Source: an uncultured Candidatus Saccharibacteria bacterium
GTDB lineage: Bacteria > Patescibacteriota > Saccharimonadia > Saccharimonadales > JAUPVS01
Direction: 5' to 3'
Assembly: GCA_964410185.1 (NCBI GenBank)
Contig: CAYPFM010000003.1
Span: 18,437-82,436 of the forward strand
Length of the DNA stretch: 64,000 nt
Positions within the stretch are counted from its first letter, which is position 1. Every line of letters begins with the position of its first letter. This document shows positions 10,772 through 20,332 of the stretch, in pieces. The notes under the pieces were generated by a model. It was not told the origin of the DNA. It made no database searches and saw only the letters and a list, made by a program, of their open reading frames with translations. A program made the translations under genes and the position numbers.

Positions 10772-11445
10772 TACTTGGCCTCCGCTTTCTTGGCCGCAGG
10801 CTTAGCAGCAGGCTTCTCGTTCAACCAATCACTCACAGCAGTTAAGCCGGCGTTGGTGATGATGATGGAGTGAGCGTTAACAATGTCATAGACGTTTAAG
10901 TAACGAGCCTGGACAACTTTGACGTAGCCCAGGTTGCTGGTAGCGCGGGTCAGTTCAGGAGTCTTAGAGTCAACAACGACCAGGACACCGCGGTTAGCAC
11001 CGAGTTTGTCGAGCAGCTTAACGGCATCAGCAGTTTTACCTGATTTAACGTCGAAAGCTTCGATAACAGCAACTTTGTTGTCGGTAGCAGCCATGCTCAA
11101 GGCCTGCTTCGTAGCACGGCGCTTGGAGCTGGTGGTAATCTTTTGGGTGTAGTTTTCGTGACCGGTTGGACCAAAAACGATACCACCACCGCGCCAGATT
11201 GGGTTACGGCTCGAGCCGAAACGTGCGCGACCGGTTCCCTTTTGCTTCCATGGCTTCTTACCACCACCACTGACGAGACCACGGGTCTTGACGTTAGCAG
11301 CCGCGGAACGGCCATTGGCCAGGTAGGCAACGTAGGCCTGCTTGATGAGTTCGTGGCTGGAAACGTCGACGGCAAAAATGTTCTTGTCGAGCTTGGCAGG
11401 AGTAGTAGCTTTGCTGCCTGATTTTGTATAGGTTGCAATCGCCAT
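10771..11445 (-). CDS. rplD: 50S ribosomal protein L4
   Basis: 224 aa containing the L4 motif GGGKKPWKQKGTGRAR. Confidence 0.96.
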   Translation of the reverse strand: MAIATYTKSGSKATTPAKLDKNIFAVDVSSHELIKQAYVAYLANGRSAAANVKTRGLVSGGGKKPWKQKGTGRARFGSSRNPIWRGGGIVFGPTGHENYTQKITTSSKRRATKQALSMAATDNKVAVIEAFDVKSGKTADAVKLLDKLGANRGVLVVVDSKTPELTRATSNLGYVKVVQARYLNVYDIVNAHSIIITNAGLTAVSDWLNEKPAAKPAAKKAEAK

Positions 11446-12068
11446 TACTTATTCTCCTTCTTTCCACGAATCAAAACGACGCTCTTGCGGGGGCCAGGAA
11501 CGGCTCCAGAAACACCAATGATGTTGCGCTCAGCGTCGATTAACGTGACTTTTAGGTTTTGGATGGTGACTTGTTCGTGACCCATCTGTCCGGCCATCTT
11601 CTTACCCTTAAAAATGTGCTGTGGATACATTGATCCAATTGAGCCTGGTTGACGGGTATTTCCCTTACCACCGTGCGTTTTGCGCTGGCGGTGGAAGTTG
11701 TGGCGCTTGATAGTACCGGCCCAACCCTTACCCTTACTGGTACCAGTAACGTCTACGGCGTCACCAATTGAAAAGACCTCGGTGGTTAGCTGGGTGCCGA
11801 CCTTGAGGTCTTCGGTAATTTCGTCGACGCGGAACTCGCGTACAATCTTTGGCATCACGTTGGCTGGCTTAAAGTGGCCGGCTTGGGCTTTGCCCATTTT
11901 TTTGTCTTCCTCGTAACCGAGCTGAACCGCGGTATAACCGTCGATGGCATCAGTTTTGACCTGCGTGATGGTGCAGGGGCTAGCGGAAAGCAAAGTAATA
12001 GCAGTCACGGTACCGTCTTCTGCGATGGTACTGGTCATGCCGACTTTTCGGGTGATAAGTGCTTTCAT
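11445..12068 (-). CDS. rplC: 50S ribosomal protein L3
   Basis: The L3 sequence begins MKALITRKVGMTS. I trimmed the track ORF (to 12098) to the ATG at 12068, which matches the usual L3 N-terminus. Confidence 0.93.
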   Translation of the reverse strand: MKALITRKVGMTSTIAEDGTVTAITLLSASPCTITQVKTDAIDGYTAVQLGYEEDKKMGKAQAGHFKPANVMPKIVREFRVDEITEDLKVGTQLTTEVFSIGDAVDVTGTSKGKGWAGTIKRHNFHRQRKTHGGKGNTRQPGSIGSMYPQHIFKGKKMAGQMGHEQVTIQNLKVTLIDAERNIIGVSGAVPGPRKSVVLIRGKKENK

Positions 12069-12326
12069 AGTTCTTTCTTTAGTTAGTTTATTGCTCACTA
12101 TTTTTTGAGCATTTGCATAAAAATGCTTGGTTACTAGTGGTTTCTACCTCTGTTATTGGGAGGTGGACCTGCTAATTGACCAAGTAAAACTTTTCTCTGC
12201 AATCTACTCAAAATTGAGATACCATAACAGAGTACCACGCGCCGCCCACTCCTGTCAATATGTTGCAAAAACTACTTCATTCATCAAAGGGTGGCTTTTT
12301 TGGCTTTTTCGTGGTATAATAGCTTT

Positions 12327-12926
12327 ATGTCACTTACCTTGCCGTCCCCTGATTATGCCGGGGCTGTTGATCCAGATCATTTTGCCCGCTTTTGTGGCTT
12401 GTACGAAGCGAGGCCTCGTCGAGCCATTCCAGAAATGGAAGCGTACGACCGCATGCTTGTTCAGGAAGCCGACCTTTTACTCGAACCGGTCAGAAGCAAC
12501 CTCAGCGGGACGACAACTTTTGCTGTTGGTGGTTTCCGGGTCGTCACCTACGAACCGACATTGCCAGATCAATCCTTTGGCGGTTCTTATACTGGGGAAT
12601 GGCATGTCGATGGGGTCCCTGATGACGGAGCCATCGAAACCCTCATTGCTGACATCCAGACAACCGAGGCGTTGAGCGGAGAACTCGATCTGGACAAGCT
12701 TGGCTGGTCAGGCAATCAAGTCGATGACGCTCTAGCAGAAGTATTGGCCGGGCACGATGATCAAACACTGGTCGACGGCTATGGTCTCACCATCCATGAT
12801 GGCATGCCAACACACACCGCACTAGTTTCTGCCGAAAGCTTGGTTCATCGTTCTCCGGCGAATAAAACCGGACAATTAGTCACACGTAACCTTTTGGTCG
12901 CCAAGTTTATTCCAGTCGATAACTAG
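12327..12926 (+). CDS. hypothetical protein (orf211); distant paralog of orf204 with an HxD...H...R signature
   Basis: Long ORF. TATAAT at 12315-12320 lies 6 nt before the ATG at 12327, suggesting a leaderless start. Motifs WHVD, DALAE, LVHRSPA and RNLLVAKF are shared with orf204. No family is securely recognised. Confidence 0.6.
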   Translation: MSLTLPSPDYAGAVDPDHFARFCGLYEARPRRAIPEMEAYDRMLVQEADLLLEPVRSNLSGTTTFAVGGFRVVTYEPTLPDQSFGGSYTGEWHVDGVPDDGAIETLIADIQTTEALSGELDLDKLGWSGNQVDDALAEVLAGHDDQTLVDGYGLTIHDGMPTHTALVSAESLVHRSPANKTGQLVTRNLLVAKFIPVDN

Positions 12927-13201
12927 AGCGCGATTGTTAACCCGAGCGGCAACCACAAGCCTACGAACATTGCCATCAGTAGGACGGCATATTCAATCTT
13001 GCGATCAAGCTGGAAATGTTCGTGACTAGCAAATACCAGCCCGATAATCAGGCCAACCGGTATTGGAATGACGGAGCCGTTACGATCGATACGCACCCAA
13101 AACGAACCAATAATCAGATACATCACCAGCTTTAAGAAGTAGGTGCTATCGATTTCTTTGGTTGGTTTGCGAGTTTTTGATTTCGTTTTAGCTTTAACCA
13201 T
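12923..13201 (-). CDS. small hypothetical membrane protein (orf94)
   Basis: A basic N-terminus followed by 2-3 hydrophobic helices. TATACT lies 7 nt before the ATG at 13201. Its stop shares the tetranucleotide CTAG (12923-12926) with the orf211 stop. Confidence 0.55.
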   Translation of the reverse strand: MVKAKTKSKTRKPTKEIDSTYFLKLVMYLIIGSFWVRIDRNGSVIPIPVGLIIGLVFASHEHFQLDRKIEYAVLLMAMFVGLWLPLGLTIAL

Positions 13202-13245
13202 AAGCAATAGTATAGCAATCTAGGGTGTTATAGACTAACCCTGCT

Positions 13246-13860
13246 ATGACACACCTGTTACCAGAAGGCTTGCACAAAGTAGGCCACGCAGACGAAGACG
13301 TATTTTTGCGCATTGACCAGCTACTCAAAGAAGCAGCTCCAAATACCGAACGCCTATCTTTCGTTAAACTTGCGGGGCACCAACAAAAAGGCTTTTCGGC
13401 CAGTCAACAAGAATCGATCGAGGCCATCTTCACGCCCTTTGTGGCGGACCTCGATACGCCTTACACCGAACTATCTCTGGGCATCGATCTCCGTGGCCAA
13501 GCATACTATGGGCGACAGGAGGCGCAAAGGCAGTCGTTTTGGCATAGCGAAGCATCGTCTCGTTCACTGTCTAACATTGGTCACTTGGGGACCTGGTTTT
13601 TAGTAGATCAACGTTCGTGTAATCCAAACGCAGGGCTTCGTGCTCTCACCGGAACCATGTTGGCGCAAGAGTATGGCATGGATCCGGTCGAGTTAAGCGA
13701 ACTACCAAGCGATGCGTTGGCAGAAGCAGGCTTGGCAATCTACCAAGCTACACCAGGTAGCATTATTGACTATTCTGGAGTTTTGCACCGCGTACCGGCA
13801 GACTTATACGATAACCCTGACTGTGGTCAGAGAATATTCGCGCGCGTAACGGTATTTTGA
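13246..13860 (+). CDS. hypothetical protein (orf204); distant paralog of orf211 with an HxE...H...R signature
   Basis: 204 aa ORF carrying WHSE, DALAE, VLHRVPA and RIFARVTVF. Its stop (13858-13860) directly abuts the convergent rpsJ stop (13861-13863). Confidence 0.6.
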   Translation: MTHLLPEGLHKVGHADEDVFLRIDQLLKEAAPNTERLSFVKLAGHQQKGFSASQQESIEAIFTPFVADLDTPYTELSLGIDLRGQAYYGRQEAQRQSFWHSEASSRSLSNIGHLGTWFLVDQRSCNPNAGLRALTGTMLAQEYGMDPVELSELPSDALAEAGLAIYQATPGSIIDYSGVLHRVPADLYDNPDCGQRIFARVTVF

Positions 13861-14208
13861 TTACATTTTGATTTCGGCGTCGCAGCCGGCTGGCAAGGAA
13901 AGATTCATCAAGCTATCGATGGTCTTTGGAGTTGGCTCCAAAACGTCGATGATGCGCTTGTGAATGCGCATTTCGAACTGTTCACGACCCTTCTTGAAAA
14001 CGTGTGGGCTCTTAACAACTGTGTAAACAGTCTTCTTGGTAGGCAGTGGGATTGGACCGGCAATAGTAGCGCCGGTGCGCAATGCGGTGTCGACAATCTG
14101 CTTGGCAGACTGGTCGATTACTTTGTGGTCGTAGGCCTTTAGGCGAATACGAATCCGCTGCTTACCAACTTCTGTTTTTGGGGCTGGTGTTTTTTTGGCT
14201 TCTGCCAT
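13861..14208 (-). CDS. rpsJ: 30S ribosomal protein S10 with a short Lys/Pro-rich N-terminal extension
   Basis: S10 core [29 protein letters not shown] lies 8 nt before the ATG at 14208. The track ORF start at 14235 is probably too long. Confidence 0.94.
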
Positions 14209-14311
14209 AGTGATAACTCCTGTGTGAAGTAACATCTTTGGTGCGCTATAGAGAACGACAACAACGACTTTTAGTCTTCACGATTAATTTACTAGCTGAT
14301 TTTACAACAAA

Positions 14312-14656
14312 TCAGTCGGGTTGTCTATCGGGATATCCGTTGACGGCCTGCCGATCTTCGGCGTAAAGGTGTCGCAGCGGTGAACTTATGCGATCCAAGT
14401 TATTCGCCAACGCAGCTGCTTCAACTGGCAGCATCGGGCCGTCATAGTCAACAGGGAAACTAAACGCACCTTCGAGTCTGGCGGCCTCGCCTTCAACATC
14501 GACTTGAGTGCCAGGGTCGACGTGCAACTCCTTCACAACTAATCCAATCAGGCTCCAGGTGTGCACGACGGTTTTTCCTTCGGCAGCTTTTCGAAACTGC
14601 TCGGCCGTTGTCATGGCGAGTGTTTGGCGTACGTCTTCTTGTGTTACTTCTGACAA
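14312..14656 (-). CDS. hypothetical acidic protein (orf114)
   Basis: 114 aa ORF. TTG start preceded by AGGAG at 7 nt. It begins 10 nt after the orf85 stop. No recognisable motif. Confidence 0.55.
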   Translation of the reverse strand: MSEVTQEDVRQTLAMTTAEQFRKAAEGKTVVHTWSLIGLVVKELHVDPGTQVDVEGEAARLEGAFSFPVDYDGPMLPVEAAALANNLDRISSPLRHLYAEDRQAVNGYPDRQPD

Positions 14657-14666
14657 TGCATTACTC

Positions 14667-14924
14667 CTATTCGACTATCCGTTGGACTTGTCGTTCTTTT
14701 GAAAGCTCGATGATAATCCCTTCTACCGCTGCCACTTGAGGATCCCAGTCTAAACGAAGCTGGTCCGGGTAAACGACCGCTCCCTTCCTGACTTCTGGAT
14801 AGTCAGTGTCCCAACAAAATGCCTCGCCAATTCTAACATCGGCCTTTTGTAGCATTCGTCGGTAGGCTGTTTCAGAATAATCACTGACGCCTTCTGCTGG
14901 GGAACCATAACTCATCATATACAT
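14667..14924 (-). CDS. hypothetical acidic protein (orf85)
   Basis: 85 aa ORF. TATAGT (14927-14932) sits just upstream, so the ATG at 14918 (8 nt downstream of it) may be a leaderless start. No recognisable motif. Confidence 0.5.
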   Translation of the reverse strand: MYMMSYGSPAEGVSDYSETAYRRMLQKADVRIGEAFCWDTDYPEVRKGAVVYPDQLRLDWDPQVAAVEGIIIELSKERQVQRIVE

Positions 14925-15112: not shown

Positions 15113-16294
15113 CTATTTGGTGATCTTAGTAACAACACCAGCACCAACGGTGCGGCCACCTTCGCGGATAGCGAAGCGCAGACCTTGTTCCATGGCGATT
15201 GGAGCGAGCAACTTAACCTTGAAGGTTACGGTGTCGCCTGGCATGACCATTTCTTTGTCAGCTGGAAGCTCAACTTCACCAGTTACGTCCGTTGTACGGA
15301 AGTAGAACTGTGGCTTGTAGCCTTTGAAGAAAGGAGTGTGACGACCACCTTCTTCTTTGGTGAGGATATAAACTTCAGCATCAAATTCGGTGTGAGGAGT
15401 CACAGTACCTGGCTTAGCCAAGACCTGACCGCGCTCGATATCGTCGCGCTCAATACCGCGGAGCAGGATACCAACGTTGTCGCCGGCTTGACCCTGATCG
15501 AGGTTCTTCTTGAACATTTCAACACCAGTAACGGTTGACTTCTTGGTGTCGCGGATACCGACGATTTCGATTTCTTCACCGACCTTAACGATACCTTGCT
15601 CAACACGGCCGGTAGCAACAGTACCACGACCCTTGATTGAGAAGACGTCTTCGATTGGCATCAAGAATGGCTTGTCGAGTTCGCGCTTTGGTTCTGGAAC
15701 GAAGTCGTCCATAGCCTTAACGAGTTCCATGATAGCGTCTTCGTTAGCAGCATCGCCTTCGAGAGCCTTGGTAGCAGAACCCTTGATGATAGGAGCGTTT
15801 TCGTCGAAACCGTTCTTACCAAGCAGTTCGCGGATGTCCATTTCGACCAATTCGATCAGTTCTGGATCGGCGAGGTCCATCTTGTTCATGAAGACCAAGA
15901 TGCTTGGAACGCCCACTTGCTTGGCAAGCAGTACGTGTTCGCGGGTTTGTGGCAGTGGACCATCGTTGGCAGCAACCACGAGGATGGCGCCATCGATCTG
16001 AGCAGCACCAGTAATCATGTTCTTAACGTAGTCGGCGTGACCTGGCATGTCGACGTGAGCGTAGTGACGCTTCTCTGACTCGTATTCCTGGTGAGAAGTA
16101 GCAATGGTAATACCACGAGCTTTTTCTTCTGGGGCGTTGTCAATTTCGTCGTACTTAATAGGCTTGTTAACGTCGCTAGGAAGCTTCTTAGCCAAAACAG
16201 CGGTAATTGCTGCAGTTAGAGTAGTTTTACCATGGTCAACGTGACCCATAGTTCCTACGTTTACGTGAGGCTTGCTTCGGTCGAAATCTGCCAT
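15113..16294 (-). CDS. tuf: elongation factor Tu
   Basis: 393 aa containing [18 protein letters not shown] and NKMD G-motifs. Confidence 0.98.
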
Positions 16295-16403: not shown

Positions 16404-16961
16404 TTACAGCCAGCGCATGCGCGAGAACGCTTCGGGGGTGGCTAAGCGAGCTACGTCTTGAGCGACGCGGCGTGGTCGTGACAATGGGATGTGCCTGATT
16501 ACTTCGATGGCTCGGGCTTGTCGGGGGTCCTGGCTATTGGTCTTAGAGGCGGCAATACCACTGAAAGTACGTAAAAGATTCCGGCGGTGTGTACCAGGGA
16601 GTTTCGGAGCGTGTTCGATGGCAGTAATCGTATCAGTCGCCGCAACGGTAAGGGTGGCGATGTTTTCGAAGTGGACGTGTTCACGGGTGGCAACTGTGGC
16701 GAGTACTCGAGTGACTATACTGGTCTGCGCCTTACGCAAGGTTACATCCTCAAACGCCCGATCGCCGTATATATTCTTGGACACAGCGAGTTGCTGTAGC
16801 AAGAACATGGTTGGCGTGCCATCTTCGGCCACACCAGGAAATAGCATCGGGTCAAAAAGCGTGTTAGCCCAAATCAGACCACCCTCTTCACACTGTTGGA
16901 TCTGGTCAAAATAGGCGGTAATTGCCGCTTCGTGCGAAAGTGTTTGCTCGCTGCCACTCAT
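16404..16961 (-). CDS. hypothetical protein (orf185) between fusA and tuf
   Basis: 185 aa ORF starting 18 nt after the fusA stop on the same strand. Acidic N-terminal half and Arg-rich C-terminal third. No recognisable motif. Confidence 0.6.
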   Translation of the reverse strand: MSGSEQTLSHEAAITAYFDQIQQCEEGGLIWANTLFDPMLFPGVAEDGTPTMFLLQQLAVSKNIYGDRAFEDVTLRKAQTSIVTRVLATVATREHVHFENIATLTVAATDTITAIEHAPKLPGTHRRNLLRTFSGIAASKTNSQDPRQARAIEVIRHIPLSRPRRVAQDVARLATPEAFSRMRWL

Positions 16962-16979: not shown

Positions 16980-19067
16980 CTACTTGGCGTTCTTGGCAAT
17001 AATCGCTTCGGCTACGTGACCAGGCACATCGGCGTAGTGGTCAAGCTCCATGCTGGAGCTGGCACGACCCTGGGTCGAGCTACGCAGGTTGGTAGTGTAA
17101 CCAAACATTTCACCGAGTGGTACGAAAGCGGTAATTTCTTTAACACCGCCGGGGAGGTCTTCCATCGATTCAATGCGACCACGCTTGGCGTTCAAATCGC
17201 CAATGACGTCACCCATGAACTGTTCTGGAGTTACGACGACCACTTTCATGATCGGCTCCATCAAGACTGGATTAGCGGCCTTAACACCGGCCTGCAGACC
17301 CATCGAGCCAGCAATCTTGAAGGCCATTTCGTTAGAGTCAACTTCGTGGAAGGAACCATCATACAGTTCAGCCTTGATGTCAACGACTGGGTAACCAGCC
17401 AAGACACCGTTCGCCATAGCTTCTTTAATACCTTCGTCAACTGGCTTGATGTATTCGCTTGGAACCACACCACCCTTGATAGAGTTGATGAATTCGTAGC
17501 CCTTACCCGGTTCGTTTTGACTCAAGCGCAACCAGACGTGACCATACTGACCACGACCACCAGACTGGCGGACAAACTTACCTTCGGCTTCGACGGCATC
17601 CTTGCGGATGGTTTCGCGGTAGGCAACCTGTGGCTGACCGATGTTGGCTTCGACATTAAATTCGCGCTTCATACGGTCAACAAGGATTTCGAGGTGCAAC
17701 TCACCCATACCACTAATGATGGTTTGAGCGGTTTCATCGTCCACACGGACGCGGAAAGTTGGGTCTTCTTCGGCTAAGCGCTGCAAGGCGATTGACATCT
17801 TGTCTTGGTCGGACTTGGTCTTTGGCTCGATAGCAATGCTGACGGGAGGTTCTGGGAAGGTGATGCTTTCCAAAACAATTGGGTTAGCGGCGTCACACAG
17901 GGTGTGACCGGTGGTAGTACCCTTGAGACCAACGATGGCAGCAATGTCACCAGCACCGACTTCAGTCACGTCTTCGCGCTTGTCGGCCTGGAGGCGGACG
18001 ATGCGGCCAACACGTTCTTTTTGGCCAGTTGAGCTGTTCAAAACGTAAGAACCAGCGGTAACCTTACCCGAGTACACGCGGAAGTAAGCTAATTTACCAA
18101 CAAATGGGTCAGTCGTGATTTTAAAGGCCAGGCTGGCAAATGGCTGTGACTCATCGGGCTTGCGCTCGATTTCTTCGTCGTTCTTAGGGTTCTTGCCCCA
18201 AGTTGAACCGATGTCCAGTGGGCTTGGTAGGTAGTCGTTAACCAGGTCGAGGACTTTTTCGACGATTACACCACGGCCGTCACCACCTGTGACGATAAAG
18301 AACTTACCAGTCAAAACAGCGGTACGGATAGCTTGCTTGATTTCGTCCTTGCTGAGGCCTTCTTCGCCAACTTCAAAGTACTTCTCGAGGATGGCTTCAT
18401 CTTCGGCCACCGCATTCTCGATGAGCAGGCTGCGGGCTTTCTTAGCTTGGTCAAGCATATCTTCTGGGATCTCCGCTTCGACCAATTCTTTGTCGTGGAA
18501 CTCGGTGTAGGTGTAGGCCTTCATGTCAACGAGGTCGATCAGACCGTTAATTGACTGTTCGAAACCAATTGGCAGGTGAATCGGGAAGGCGCGCTTGTTG
18601 AGGCGAGCGTGGATAGAGTCGAGAGACTTGTAGAAATCGCCACCGGTTTGGTTGATCTTGTTGATGAAACAGATACGAGGCACACCGTACTTGTCGGCTT
18701 GGCGCCAAACAGTTTCGGACTGTGATTCGACACCCATCTTGCCGTCAAAGACCACACAGGCACCGTCGAGGACGCGCAGTGAGCGCTCAACTTCGACCGT
18801 GAAGTCAATGTGACCTGGGGTATCAATAATGTTAATCTGGTGACCCTTCCAGAAGCAAGTAACAGAGGCAGCAACAATGGTAATACCACGTTCGCGCTCT
18901 TGTTCCATCCAGTCAGTAGTGGTTTCACCTTCGTGCACGGCACCAATCTTGTGATTAAGCCCAGTGCGGTACAAAATACCTTCCGTCGTTGTAGTCTTAC
19001 CGGCATCAATGTGCGCGATAATACCAAGGTTACGGATGTTCTTCATTTCAGTTTTCTTTGTTGCCAT
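16980..19067 (-). CDS. fusA: elongation factor G
   Basis: 695 aa containing AHIDAGKTTTTE, DTPGHIDF and NKIN. Confidence 0.98.
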   Translation of the reverse strand: MATKKTEMKNIRNLGIIAHIDAGKTTTTEGILYRTGLNHKIGAVHEGETTTDWMEQERERGITIVAASVTCFWKGHQINIIDTPGHIDFTVEVERSLRVLDGACVVFDGKMGVESQSETVWRQADKYGVPRICFINKINQTGGDFYKSLDSIHARLNKRAFPIHLPIGFEQSINGLIDLVDMKAYTYTEFHDKELVEAEIPEDMLDQAKKARSLLIENAVAEDEAILEKYFEVGEEGLSKDEIKQAIRTAVLTGKFFIVTGGDGRGVIVEKVLDLVNDYLPSPLDIGSTWGKNPKNDEEIERKPDESQPFASLAFKITTDPFVGKLAYFRVYSGKVTAGSYVLNSSTGQKERVGRIVRLQADKREDVTEVGAGDIAAIVGLKGTTTGHTLCDAANPIVLESITFPEPPVSIAIEPKTKSDQDKMSIALQRLAEEDPTFRVRVDDETAQTIISGMGELHLEILVDRMKREFNVEANIGQPQVAYRETIRKDAVEAEGKFVRQSGGRGQYGHVWLRLSQNEPGKGYEFINSIKGGVVPSEYIKPVDEGIKEAMANGVLAGYPVVDIKAELYDGSFHEVDSNEMAFKIAGSMGLQAGVKAANPVLMEPIMKVVVVTPEQFMGDVIGDLNAKRGRIESMEDLPGGVKEITAFVPLGEMFGYTTNLRSSTQGRASSSMELDHYADVPGHVAEAIIAKNAK

Positions 19068-19094
19068 GTATCAATACCTACCCTGTCTTAATAT

Positions 19095-19430
19095 TTAAAA
19101 GTTCTCGATGAAATAATTTGCGCTAGTTAAGTAGCCAAGTTCTTCGGCAATAGTCGCCATTGTGTGTTTGATTCTTGTCTTGTTTGTAGGTTCTTCTGTT
19201 GAACCGGCCGCAGACTCTTCTTGCATCAAGTATGAGAGTGTCGTCGCCTCCTGCCCTACGATAGGTGCCCACAGTCTAACGTTGTGTTCTCCGCCGATGC
19301 TCTCAAGAAAGTCTGCCGAGAGGTGGACTGGTGGCTGAATTCTGACAAGACCACCAGCAAAATCATTATTCGTACCTACGGTTATTTCATATCTGCCATA
19401 GGGTGATGGGATTCCAAAAAATTCAGACAT
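19095..19430 (-). CDS. hypothetical acidic protein (orf111) between rpsG and fusA
   Basis: 111 aa ORF starting 12 nt after the rpsG stop and ending 27 nt before the fusA ATG. No recognisable motif. Confidence 0.55.
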   Translation of the reverse strand: MSEFFGIPSPYGRYEITVGTNNDFAGGLVRIQPPVHLSADFLESIGGEHNVRLWAPIVGQEATTLSYLMQEESAAGSTEEPTNKTRIKHTMATIAEELGYLTSANYFIENF

Positions 19431-19442
19431 CTCTGGGTTAAC

Positions 19443-19919
19443 CTATCTCGCAAAGTGAGCGAAGGCGCGGTTGGCTTCGGCCATCTTATGGGTATCTTCA
19501 CGCTTCTTAACTGAGGTACCAGTGTTGTTGTAAGCATCAACCAGTTCGTTGGCGATGCGGTCTTCCATGCTCATGCCCTTTTTGGCGCGAGCGGCGGCGA
19601 CGAACCACATCATGGTGAGGTGATTCTGGCGCTGACCCTTAACTTCAAACGGAATCTGGTAGTTAGCACCACCAACACGGCGAGAGCGAGTCTCGACCTG
19701 TGGCTGAATGTTCTTCATGGCTTGCTCAAAAACATCTAAAGGATTCTTGACCTTGAGCTTGTCGGCAGCTTTTTGCATACCACCGTAAACCAGGCGTTCA
19801 GCCAGTTGCTTCTTACCGTTCAACATAACGCGGTTGATAAGGCGCTGAACCTGCACGCTGTTGTACAAGCGGTCAGCTGGAATGTCACGAACTAATGATT
19901 TGGTTACTTTACGTGGCAT
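19443..19919 (-). CDS. rpsG: 30S ribosomal protein S7
   Basis: 158 aa starting [16 protein letters not shown] and ending ...ANRAFAHFAR. Confidence 0.97.
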   Translation of the reverse strand: MPRKVTKSLVRDIPADRLYNSVQVQRLINRVMLNGKKQLAERLVYGGMQKAADKLKVKNPLDVFEQAMKNIQPQVETRSRRVGGANYQIPFEVKGQRQNHLTMMWFVAAARAKKGMSMEDRIANELVDAYNNTGTSVKKREDTHKMAEANRAFAHFAR

Positions 19920-20332
19920 TACTTGCTCTCCTTCTTGGCACCGTACTTAGAACGGCCCTGTTTGCGACCCTGAACACCCTGAAGGTCCAAGGCGCCGCGA
20001 ACGATGTGATAGCGCACACCTGGAAGGTCCTTAACGCGACCACCGCGGACCAGCACGACGGCGTGTTCTTGGAGGTTGTGACCCTCACCACCGATGTAAG
20101 CCCAAACTTCTTGGCCGTTTTGCAAACGGACACGAGCGACCTTACGCAAAGCCGAGTTAGGCTTCTTTGGTGTCTTGGTAGTAACTTTGACACAAACGCC
20201 GCGCTTGAATGGTGCGGACTTTTCGTAGTTGACGTTGCGCAGGTTATTGGTAACCTTGTGCAACGCTGGCGACTTAGACTTGGTCGACTTGTCGGTTCGG
20301 CCTTTGCGCACTAATTGATTGATTGTTGGCAT
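19919..20332 (-). CDS. rpsL: 30S ribosomal protein S12
   Basis: 137 aa starting [12 protein letters not shown], with [16 protein letters not shown] Shine-Dalgarno upstream. Confidence 0.98.

Follow-up and report, generated by a model that had tools for sequence, protein, structure and literature searches.

A previously undescribed family of small acidic proteins encoded between rpsG and fusA in a lineage of Saccharibacteria

Introduction

Few gene orders in bacteria are as well conserved as rpsL-rpsG-fusA-tuf, and the Saccharibacteria are episymbionts with reduced genomes that have little room for useless DNA. What, then, is an additional open reading frame (ORF) doing in the middle of this block in a member of the group? 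The question is raised by orf111, an ORF of 111 amino acids (aa) located between rpsG and fusA on the minus strand of a 64,000-nucleotide (nt) stretch, hereafter the window, of contig CAYPFM010000003.1 from an uncultured Candidatus Saccharibacteria bacterium (GenBank assembly GCA_964410185.1). The original prediction, made from the sequence alone, had reported an acidic ORF inside this junction, on the same strand as its neighbours and separated from them by 12 and 27 nt; the coordinates and the quoted translation (MSEFFGIPSPYGRYEITVGTNNDFAGGLVRIQPP...) agree with the sequence, and the isoelectric point (pI) calculated for the product is 4.65.

The evidence presented below indicates that orf111 is, almost certainly, a real protein-coding gene. 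It belongs to a family of proteins that had not been described before and that is confined to a single lineage of the Saccharibacteria; literature searches turned up no account of genes located between rpsG and fusA in the candidate phyla radiation (CPR) or in Saccharibacteria.

A conserved protein family in the rpsG-fusA junction

An exhaustive phmmer search of 1.84 billion representative proteins with orf111 produced 76 matches of two kinds, one of which, comprising about 20 proteins of 91–133 aa, aligned with orf111 from end to end. The closest homologues were P0002 (43% identity, expectation value (E) 9e-18) and P0003 (43% identity, E 7e-16), and the family formed by orf111 together with these proteins (P0002, P0003, P0009 and others) is labelled X here. 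A word-indexed search of 5.8 billion clusters recovered only orf111 itself, on one 230-kb NCBI contig and one JGI contig, and only 5 members were found with the X family profile as the query, so the family became visible because the exhaustive search was used, the word-indexed one having missed most of it. The claim of the original prediction that the sequence matches nothing stands as far as characterised families and structures are concerned: orf111 had no match in Pfam, NCBIfam or PHROG, none of the 21 X members was recognised by PADLOC or had a relevant match in Pfam, and a profile search of the PDB sequences returned only insignificant flagellin helices (E ~0.5). It does not stand for uncharacterised proteins, since the homology search proposed at that time has yielded about 20 full-length relatives.

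The alignment of the 21 X sequences is collinear and includes two motifs, RNDFxDGxxRIEPP and GxEAT, and a conserved C-terminal amphipathic helix. Residues G27, R30 and T63 are invariant, and P33 and P34 are nearly so. The window's variant of the first, signature motif is NNDFAGGLVRIQPP (codons 21–34, 19329–19370, minus strand), and that of the second is GQEAT (codons 59–63, 19242–19256, minus strand). All 21 members are acidic, with a pI of 4.05–5.41; in orf111 there are 14 D+E residues versus 6 K+R. The features by which X proteins are recognised, i.e., similarity over the full length, the position in the slot and an acidic product of ~90–135 aa, are all present in orf111, and a family hidden Markov model (HMM) built without the window sequence scored it at 110.7 bits. 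The chance of a 111-codon open frame is about (61/64)^111 = 0.005 per frame.

Genomic context was recovered for 12 distinct X members out of 21: that of the window, P0029 (locus L082), P0070 (L083/L084), P0028 (L085), P0052 (L086), P0002 (L097), P0003 (L098), P0020 (L099, NCBI GCA_029288335.1), P0016 (L100/L101), P0072 (L102–L104), P0036 (L105) and P0009 (L106). The synteny comparison, likewise suggested by the original prediction, gave a uniform picture: in every one of the 12 loci, X is encoded between rpsG and fusA and in the same orientation as both. The distance from the S7 stop to the X start was from -1 to 30 nt in 11 of the 12 loci, and that from the X stop to the fusA start was from -1 to 27 nt, also in 11 of 12, including 1-nt overlaps in L082, L098 and L100. 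The order of genes in the slot is S7-X-orf103-orf107-EF-G in L097 and S7-orf114-orf97-orf139-X-EF-G in L099.

The str operon of the window

According to the ORF list, the minus strand of the window carries the classical rpoB-rpoC-rpsL-rpsG-fusA-tuf block. The gene rpsL for ribosomal protein S12 (19919–20332; S12 is 79–88% identical in related loci) overlaps by 1 nt with the start of rpsG (stop/start region 19917–19921), leaving no room for an S7 operator of the Escherichia coli type between S12 and S7. The rpsG gene (19443–19919, stop codon 19443–19445) encodes a complete ribosomal protein S7 of 158 aa with a pI of 10.4 (PF00177 Ribosomal_S7, E 2.4e-53, profile positions 6–148 of 148). It is separated by a 12-nt spacer (19431–19442, GTTAACCCAGAG on the coding strand) from orf111 (19095–19430; ATG 19428–19430, TAA 19095–19097), which in turn is followed, after a 27-nt spacer (19068–19094), by fusA (16980–19067, ATG 19065–19067) for a complete EF-G of 695 aa with the Pfam domains GTP_EFTU, EF-G_D2, EFG_III, EFG_IV and EFG_C. 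A Shine-Dalgarno (SD)-like sequence, GGGTAGG (about 19077–19083), is present 9 nt upstream of the fusA ATG, and purine-rich, SD-like bases are also found in the final codons of rpsG. The str operon ends with tuf (15113–16294, minus strand), whose product EF-Tu is 84–94% identical in relatives. An origin of orf111 as a split-off domain of S7 or EF-G was rejected, S7 being complete and EF-G having all five of its domains.

Neither a promoter-like or terminator-like site on the minus strand nor an Rfam element was found in the rpsG-fusA slot of the window. X lacks a promoter and terminator of its own, and its ends abut or overlap the stop of S7 and the start of EF-G; this makes it probable that X forms part of the str mRNA and is translated together with its operon neighbours. 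Translation would then proceed on one polycistronic str mRNA by sequential coupling from S12 to S7, X and EF-G and, judging from this anatomy, would give X a ribosome-like abundance.

Predicted structure

AlphaFold2 modeling based on the 21-sequence X alignment resulted in a mean predicted local distance difference test score (pLDDT) of 85.4 and a predicted TM-score (pTM) of 0.74, with all five models at 84–85. The predicted elements follow in the order b1 (3–8), b2 (15–20), b3 (26–32), a1 (39–48), b4 (51–58), b5 (63–69), a2 (83–102) and a3 (104–110), with a disordered acidic linker at about residues 70–82. The signature motif covers the loop of the b2-b3 hairpin as well as strand b3, and GxEAT maps to the b4-b5 hairpin. 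According to this model, X is predicted to be a compact, cytoplasmic acidic alpha/beta protein of ~110 aa with a globular b3-a-b2-a2 fold.

Foldseek searches of the PDB and BFVD found nothing at E ≤ 1e-3. The best TM-score in the PDB was 0.37, for ExsC (3kxy) and PheF (7z3s), and the best scores in the BFVD were 0.48–0.49, with uncharacterised phage proteins. Kinase N-lobes and IS200 transposases (TM 0.3–0.37) were rejected as sharing only a common b3-a-b2 topology. The predicted fold is best treated as unclassified, having no recognisable relatives by these searches. A catalytic signature was not evident in X.

Distribution and evolution

A search anchored on EF-G, in which each GTDB species was represented by one genome, gave top matches (81–87% identity) in metagenome-assembled genomes of uncultured Candidatus Saccharibacteria and Patescibacteria. 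The rpsG-fusA gap was 0–150 nt in almost all non-CPR bacteria sampled, while in many Patescibacteria it reached 360–3700 nt and was filled with ORFs. The nearly universal rpsG-fusA adjacency assumed in the original prediction is thus correct for the non-CPR sample and fails for the Patescibacteria. One of the few expanded non-CPR gaps sampled was that of Bacillus chungangensis (347 nt; L058:3632-3912), with two minus-strand ORFs sharing an identical 25-aa N-terminus, which suggests that this spacer holds a duplicated or repeated element.

The X-bearing genomes were 72–91% identical to the window in EF-G and 65–87% in S7. The mean pairwise identity in the same genomes was 34% for X versus 78% for S7, and the pairwise identities of the two proteins were positively related (Spearman 0.50, p 0.002; Mantel p 0.085, not significant), which fits vertical descent with an about three- to four-fold faster divergence of X than of its neighbours. 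Preservation of the frame, length and motifs at such divergence, although synonymous sites must be saturated, was counted as evidence of purifying selection, in line with what the original prediction had expected of a genuine gene. The closest pairs of different X proteins were at most 50% identical, and between contigs encoding identical X proteins the X gene showed 0 differences in DNA sequence. A single case of the latter kind concerned two contigs from different samples, L100 (6001-6366) and L101 (611-976): X was identical over 366 nt, while the flanking rpsG carried 22 differences in 480 nt, 19 of them synonymous, and fusA differed by ~5% over its first 144 nt. This could be due to a recent recombination or sweep or to a chimeric assembly, and the case is subject to ascertainment bias, being found by an exact-protein look-up.

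In the neighbour-joining tree of EF-G, a clade with 100% support mixed X-bearing genomes (the window, L097, L099 and L102) with those lacking X, and L083 bears X yet is placed outside this clade. L099, with X and three other ORFs in the slot, paired with L005 (79% support), in which the gap is only 15 nt; in L004 the gap is 2 nt, and in L002, L003 and L007 the slot is occupied by other ORFs of 90–117 aa. Absence from relatives, by which the original prediction had proposed to judge the ORF, was therefore observed in part: the family is kept at the same slot in 11 other genomes and is absent in some close relatives, L002–L005 and L007. It follows from this distribution that X is older than the clade and was lost or replaced on several occasions. 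The state of the slot in L006, the nearest relative of the window by EF-G, is hidden by a 100-N scaffold gap (L006:1980-2080) extending from rpsG codon 13 to about fusA codon 39; the record is labelled 'uncultured Bordetella sp.' and is evidently a mis-binned Saccharibacteria contig.

The slot ORFs of L002, L003 and L007 were rejected as X members by BLAST, Smith-Waterman shuffles, HMM and hhalign (probability <1%). The same was true for a 'PP...FL..G' motif common to orf111 and the 90-aa slot ORF of L002 (shuffle z = 1.7, hhalign probability 0.5%). The L003 ORF had no homologues in the word-indexed search, and its single-sequence AlphaFold2 model (pLDDT 56, low confidence) was mostly helical and unlike X; the models do not support the idea of a common fold that has become unrecognisable by divergence.

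X is not mobile by any test applied: no viral contig contained the degenerate DNA pattern of the X motif, tblastn against 50,697 phage and 72,556 plasmid records gave no match, and the PADLOC result was negative, as mentioned above. The degenerate pattern, ND[FY]xDGxxR[IV]xPP, was found at 10 metagenome loci, none of which matched the family HMM with the exception of L091 (11 bits, E 0.047, insignificant), and these were treated as chance occurrences.

Possible function and alternative explanations

The best explanation of these findings, a tentative one that falls slightly short of an even chance, is that X is a real clade-specific family and a fixed resident of the slot, coupled with S7 and EF-G and serving as an acidic accessory binder of a translation component. 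That its partner belongs to the translation machinery is a candidate assignment, possible rather than probable. The lack of a catalytic signature, the uniform acidity and the stoichiometric co-expression with the very basic S7 make a binding role the most likely one; in this scheme, whose weakest step this is, X would not be a catalyst and would instead bind a basic component of the translation apparatus as an accessory partner. The first candidate for such a partner would be newly made free S7, in a role resembling that of the trigger factor:S7 complexes, because trigger factor has been reported to bind and stabilise free uS7 (see below), with the 30S subunit or EF-G as alternative candidates.

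Several observations weigh against this explanation. Partners of very conserved proteins do not usually diverge as rapidly as X does. X is dispensable, since it has been lost or replaced several times and gaps of only 2–15 nt are present in L004 and L005 within the clade of 100% support. No residues of S12, S7 or EF-G co-varied with the presence of X. Furthermore, orf111 is without the codon bias of highly expressed genes, given its low G+C content at third codon positions (GC3, 0.43 versus 0.53–0.61 in the neighbours), and in L097 and L099 other ORFs part X from one of its two usual neighbours.

Most of these properties, i.e., the dispensability, the lower GC3, the very fast divergence and the lack of co-varying residues in neighbour proteins, as well as the presence, in the same and adjacent slots of relatives, of numerous unrelated ORFs that are comparable in size and charge and have no detectable homologues, would also be expected if X were a low-constraint hitchhiker: a lineage-specific, possibly spacer-born product, harmless by being soluble, acidic and unable to bind RNA, which is expressed by read-through and has no role in translation. 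Such an origin is unlikely, although it survives best among the alternatives. The predicted fold is confident, well packed and backed by the alignment, the motifs include invariant residues, and X has been kept in lineages down to 65% identity in S7 and 72% in EF-G, one of them outside the main clade, which together argue for sustained purifying selection on a specific structure.

A fairly improbable alternative is a protective protein driven by conflict, in which X would be an acidic inhibitor or an 'immunity-like' decoy shielding EF-G, EF-Tu or the ribosome from toxins or antibiotics of hosts or competitors. The seat in the str operon would in this case guarantee constitutive high expression, and the unrelated acidic ORFs of the slot would represent alternative specificities. 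Nuclease and toxin immunity proteins are typically small acidic alpha/beta proteins, and the fast divergence (34% identity versus 78% for S7), the patchy, interspersed distribution with unrelated ORFs in the slots of sister genomes, the tandem arrays of 3–4 different small ORFs in the slots of L097 and L099, and the acidity of the inserted ORFs in general (pI <5.5 in 16 of the 20 others versus 24% of the window ORFs) are all consistent with this possibility; the identical X of L100 and L101 between flanks that are ~5% apart could reflect a recombination sweep. Against it, no toxin or partner gene adjoins X in any of the loci, none of the 21 members matched an immunity family of PADLOC or Pfam (known families only), and X occupies a single locus in 12 of 12 cases, showing no island-hopping and no presence in the phage, plasmid and viral collections.

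That orf111 might be a chance open frame in an expanded spacer or a non-coding regulatory leader of fusA, for which its atypical GC3 and the lack of a known domain could be cited, is very improbable and is effectively refuted by the full-length alignment of about 20 homologues with conserved motifs, the identical synteny in 12 of 12 loci, the score of 110.7 bits from an HMM that excluded the window sequence and the confident AlphaFold2 model, there being also no Rfam family or terminator-like element in the slot. Finally, a negligible chance is left for a relationship of orf111, be it as a fragment or as a relative, to WD40 beta-propeller proteins, to which the second kind of phmmer matches belonged (about 55 of 76, long actinobacterial WD40-repeat proteins with E down to 1e-14, all on orf111 residues 39–66, window 19233–19316, minus strand, in 3–11 stretches each), since these scores sum 4–11 repeats of one short motif (DGTVRLWDPATGQ..TL versus EHNVRLWAPIVGQEATTL), the VRLW string is found within the X family in the window's member alone, the HMM without the window sequence, which identified the relationship as a repeat-summed artefact, gave 2–6 bits per repeat, there is a single motif with no Pfam WD40 match, and the model places a helix and a hairpin inside an alpha/beta domain instead of a propeller blade. 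The local resemblance of 'VRLW..GQEATTL' in orf111 to a WD40 strand pair is, nevertheless, a caution for automated annotation, in that residues 39–66 mimic a WD40 repeat.

Other inserted ORFs in the clade

X is the only inserted ORF with a demonstrable conserved family, and it is not the only insert. The str operons of the clade contain extra ORFs of 75–93 aa between S12 and S7 (L082, L097, L099 and L100), up to four ORFs between S7 and EF-G and up to three between EF-G and EF-Tu; none of the 20 inserted ORFs whose acidity is given above was related to another by BLAST. L097 (5236-10483) and L099 (1648-6696) have 7 and 7 extra small ORFs, mostly acidic, distributed among the S12/S7, S7/EF-G and EF-G/EF-Tu slots.

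In the window, a second insert, orf185 (16404–16961, minus strand, pI 8.0), is located in the fusA-tuf slot and had no match in Pfam, NCBIfam or PHROG. It is unrelated to orf111, and no paralogue of the latter was found anywhere in the window, confirming the view of the original prediction that the inserted ORFs are not a simple paralogous family. A 184-aa ORF (orf184) in the fusA-tuf slot of L097 has no detectable similarity to orf185 despite 94% identity in EF-Tu. Two acidic ORFs with no Pfam match, orf85 (14667-14924, minus strand, pI 4.7) and the window's own orf114 (14312-14656, minus strand, pI 4.6), lie in the gap between tuf and the S10 gene rpsJ (13861-14235). The genes rpsJ and rplC are normally adjacent; in the window, rpsJ is split from the L3 gene rplC (11445-12098) by ~1.76 kb (12099-13860) with three ORFs that have no Pfam match: one of 204 aa and pI 5.0 (13246-13860, plus strand), one of 94 aa (12923-13207, minus strand) and one of 211 aa and pI 4.4 (12291-12926, plus strand). 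Two of the three have the opposite orientation, and the S10 operon is therefore physically interrupted.

Significance

As a protein family X is new, and in kind it is a known feature, an accessory cistron that a single lineage carries in an operon of ribosomal protein genes; X is also one among many uncharacterised CPR proteins. A conserved extra cistron at the S7-EF-G coupling junction suggests a lineage-specific addition to the making, chaperoning or protecting of translation components, and solving the structure of X or identifying its partner would provide new information. The str operon of this clade, with up to seven mutually unrelated extra ORFs, represents a tractable system for gene gain, loss and possibly birth in an essential, highly expressed operon. 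As a speculation of low probability, the str junctions of the clade might serve as an expression platform, perhaps even a birthplace, for fast-turnover small acidic proteins that bind, tune or protect S7/30S, EF-G and EF-Tu, for example by target protection against translation inhibitors of the actinobacterial hosts, in which case X would be the oldest survivor, residing in the S7-EF-G junction.

Comparison with known systems

Class I chaperones of type III secretion (ExsC, CesT, SycE) have a b3-a-b2-a core topology. They resemble X in being small, acidic and partner-binding, and ExsC (3kxy) was among the top Foldseek PDB matches. The assignment of X to this fold was rejected on the basis of the alignment with 3kxy_A (TMq 0.37 with TM ≥ 0.5 required, root mean square deviation 6.8 A, E 0.16, probability 0.47); X also lacks the N-terminal helix of these chaperones, and no type III secretion or effector genes were found near X, its neighbours being rpsG and fusA in all loci. 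FusB and FusC are target-protection proteins binding EF-G, which have ~213 aa and two domains, including a zinc-binding one, and are usually borne on plasmids or islands. Their likeness to X is conceptual only, as accessory proteins acting via EF-G: X had no corresponding Pfam or NCBIfam match and is a single-domain family, with 111 aa in the window and a different predicted fold. Membership in a known immunity or defence family was rejected as well, with PADLOC at 0 of 21, 0 relevant Pfam matches and no adjacent toxin-like ORF (known families only).

A precedent for a partner of free S7, the role proposed for X, can be found in trigger factor, which binds and stabilises free uS7 and masks its rRNA-binding surface in Thermotoga maritima and Mycobacterium tuberculosis (PMC10931766). 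Trigger factor differs from X in being large, universal, multi-domain and encoded elsewhere, and it has no sequence or structural relation to X.

The str operon of E. coli has the same gene order, rpsL-rpsG-fusA-tuf, as that of the window, and its S7 binds an operator of ~100 nt between rpsL and rpsG. In the window this operator is absent, the two genes overlapping by 1 nt, and an extra cistron is present in the S7-EF-G coupling junction. Translation of fus in E. coli is coupled to that of rpsG, and S7 acts as the translational repressor of the operon (PMC10931766). The tight or overlapping junctions suggest that the same kind of coupling might operate in the X-bearing operons, through X.

In kind, X comes closest to accessory genes lying within the str region, of which ybxF of Bacillus is an example. 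YbxF (RplGB/OapC) is dispensable and is encoded upstream of rpsL in the rpoC-rpsL-rpsG-fusA-tuf region of Firmicutes. It binds k-turn RNA (PMC9723947). In contrast to X, which is acidic and located between rpsG and fusA, YbxF is an RNA-binding member of the ancient L7Ae family, and no X member matched Pfam Ribosomal_L7Ae at E ≤ 1. What the two would have in common is their kind: both are small, lineage-restricted, dispensable accessory genes in the str neighbourhood, co-expressed, in the case of X probably, with core translation genes.

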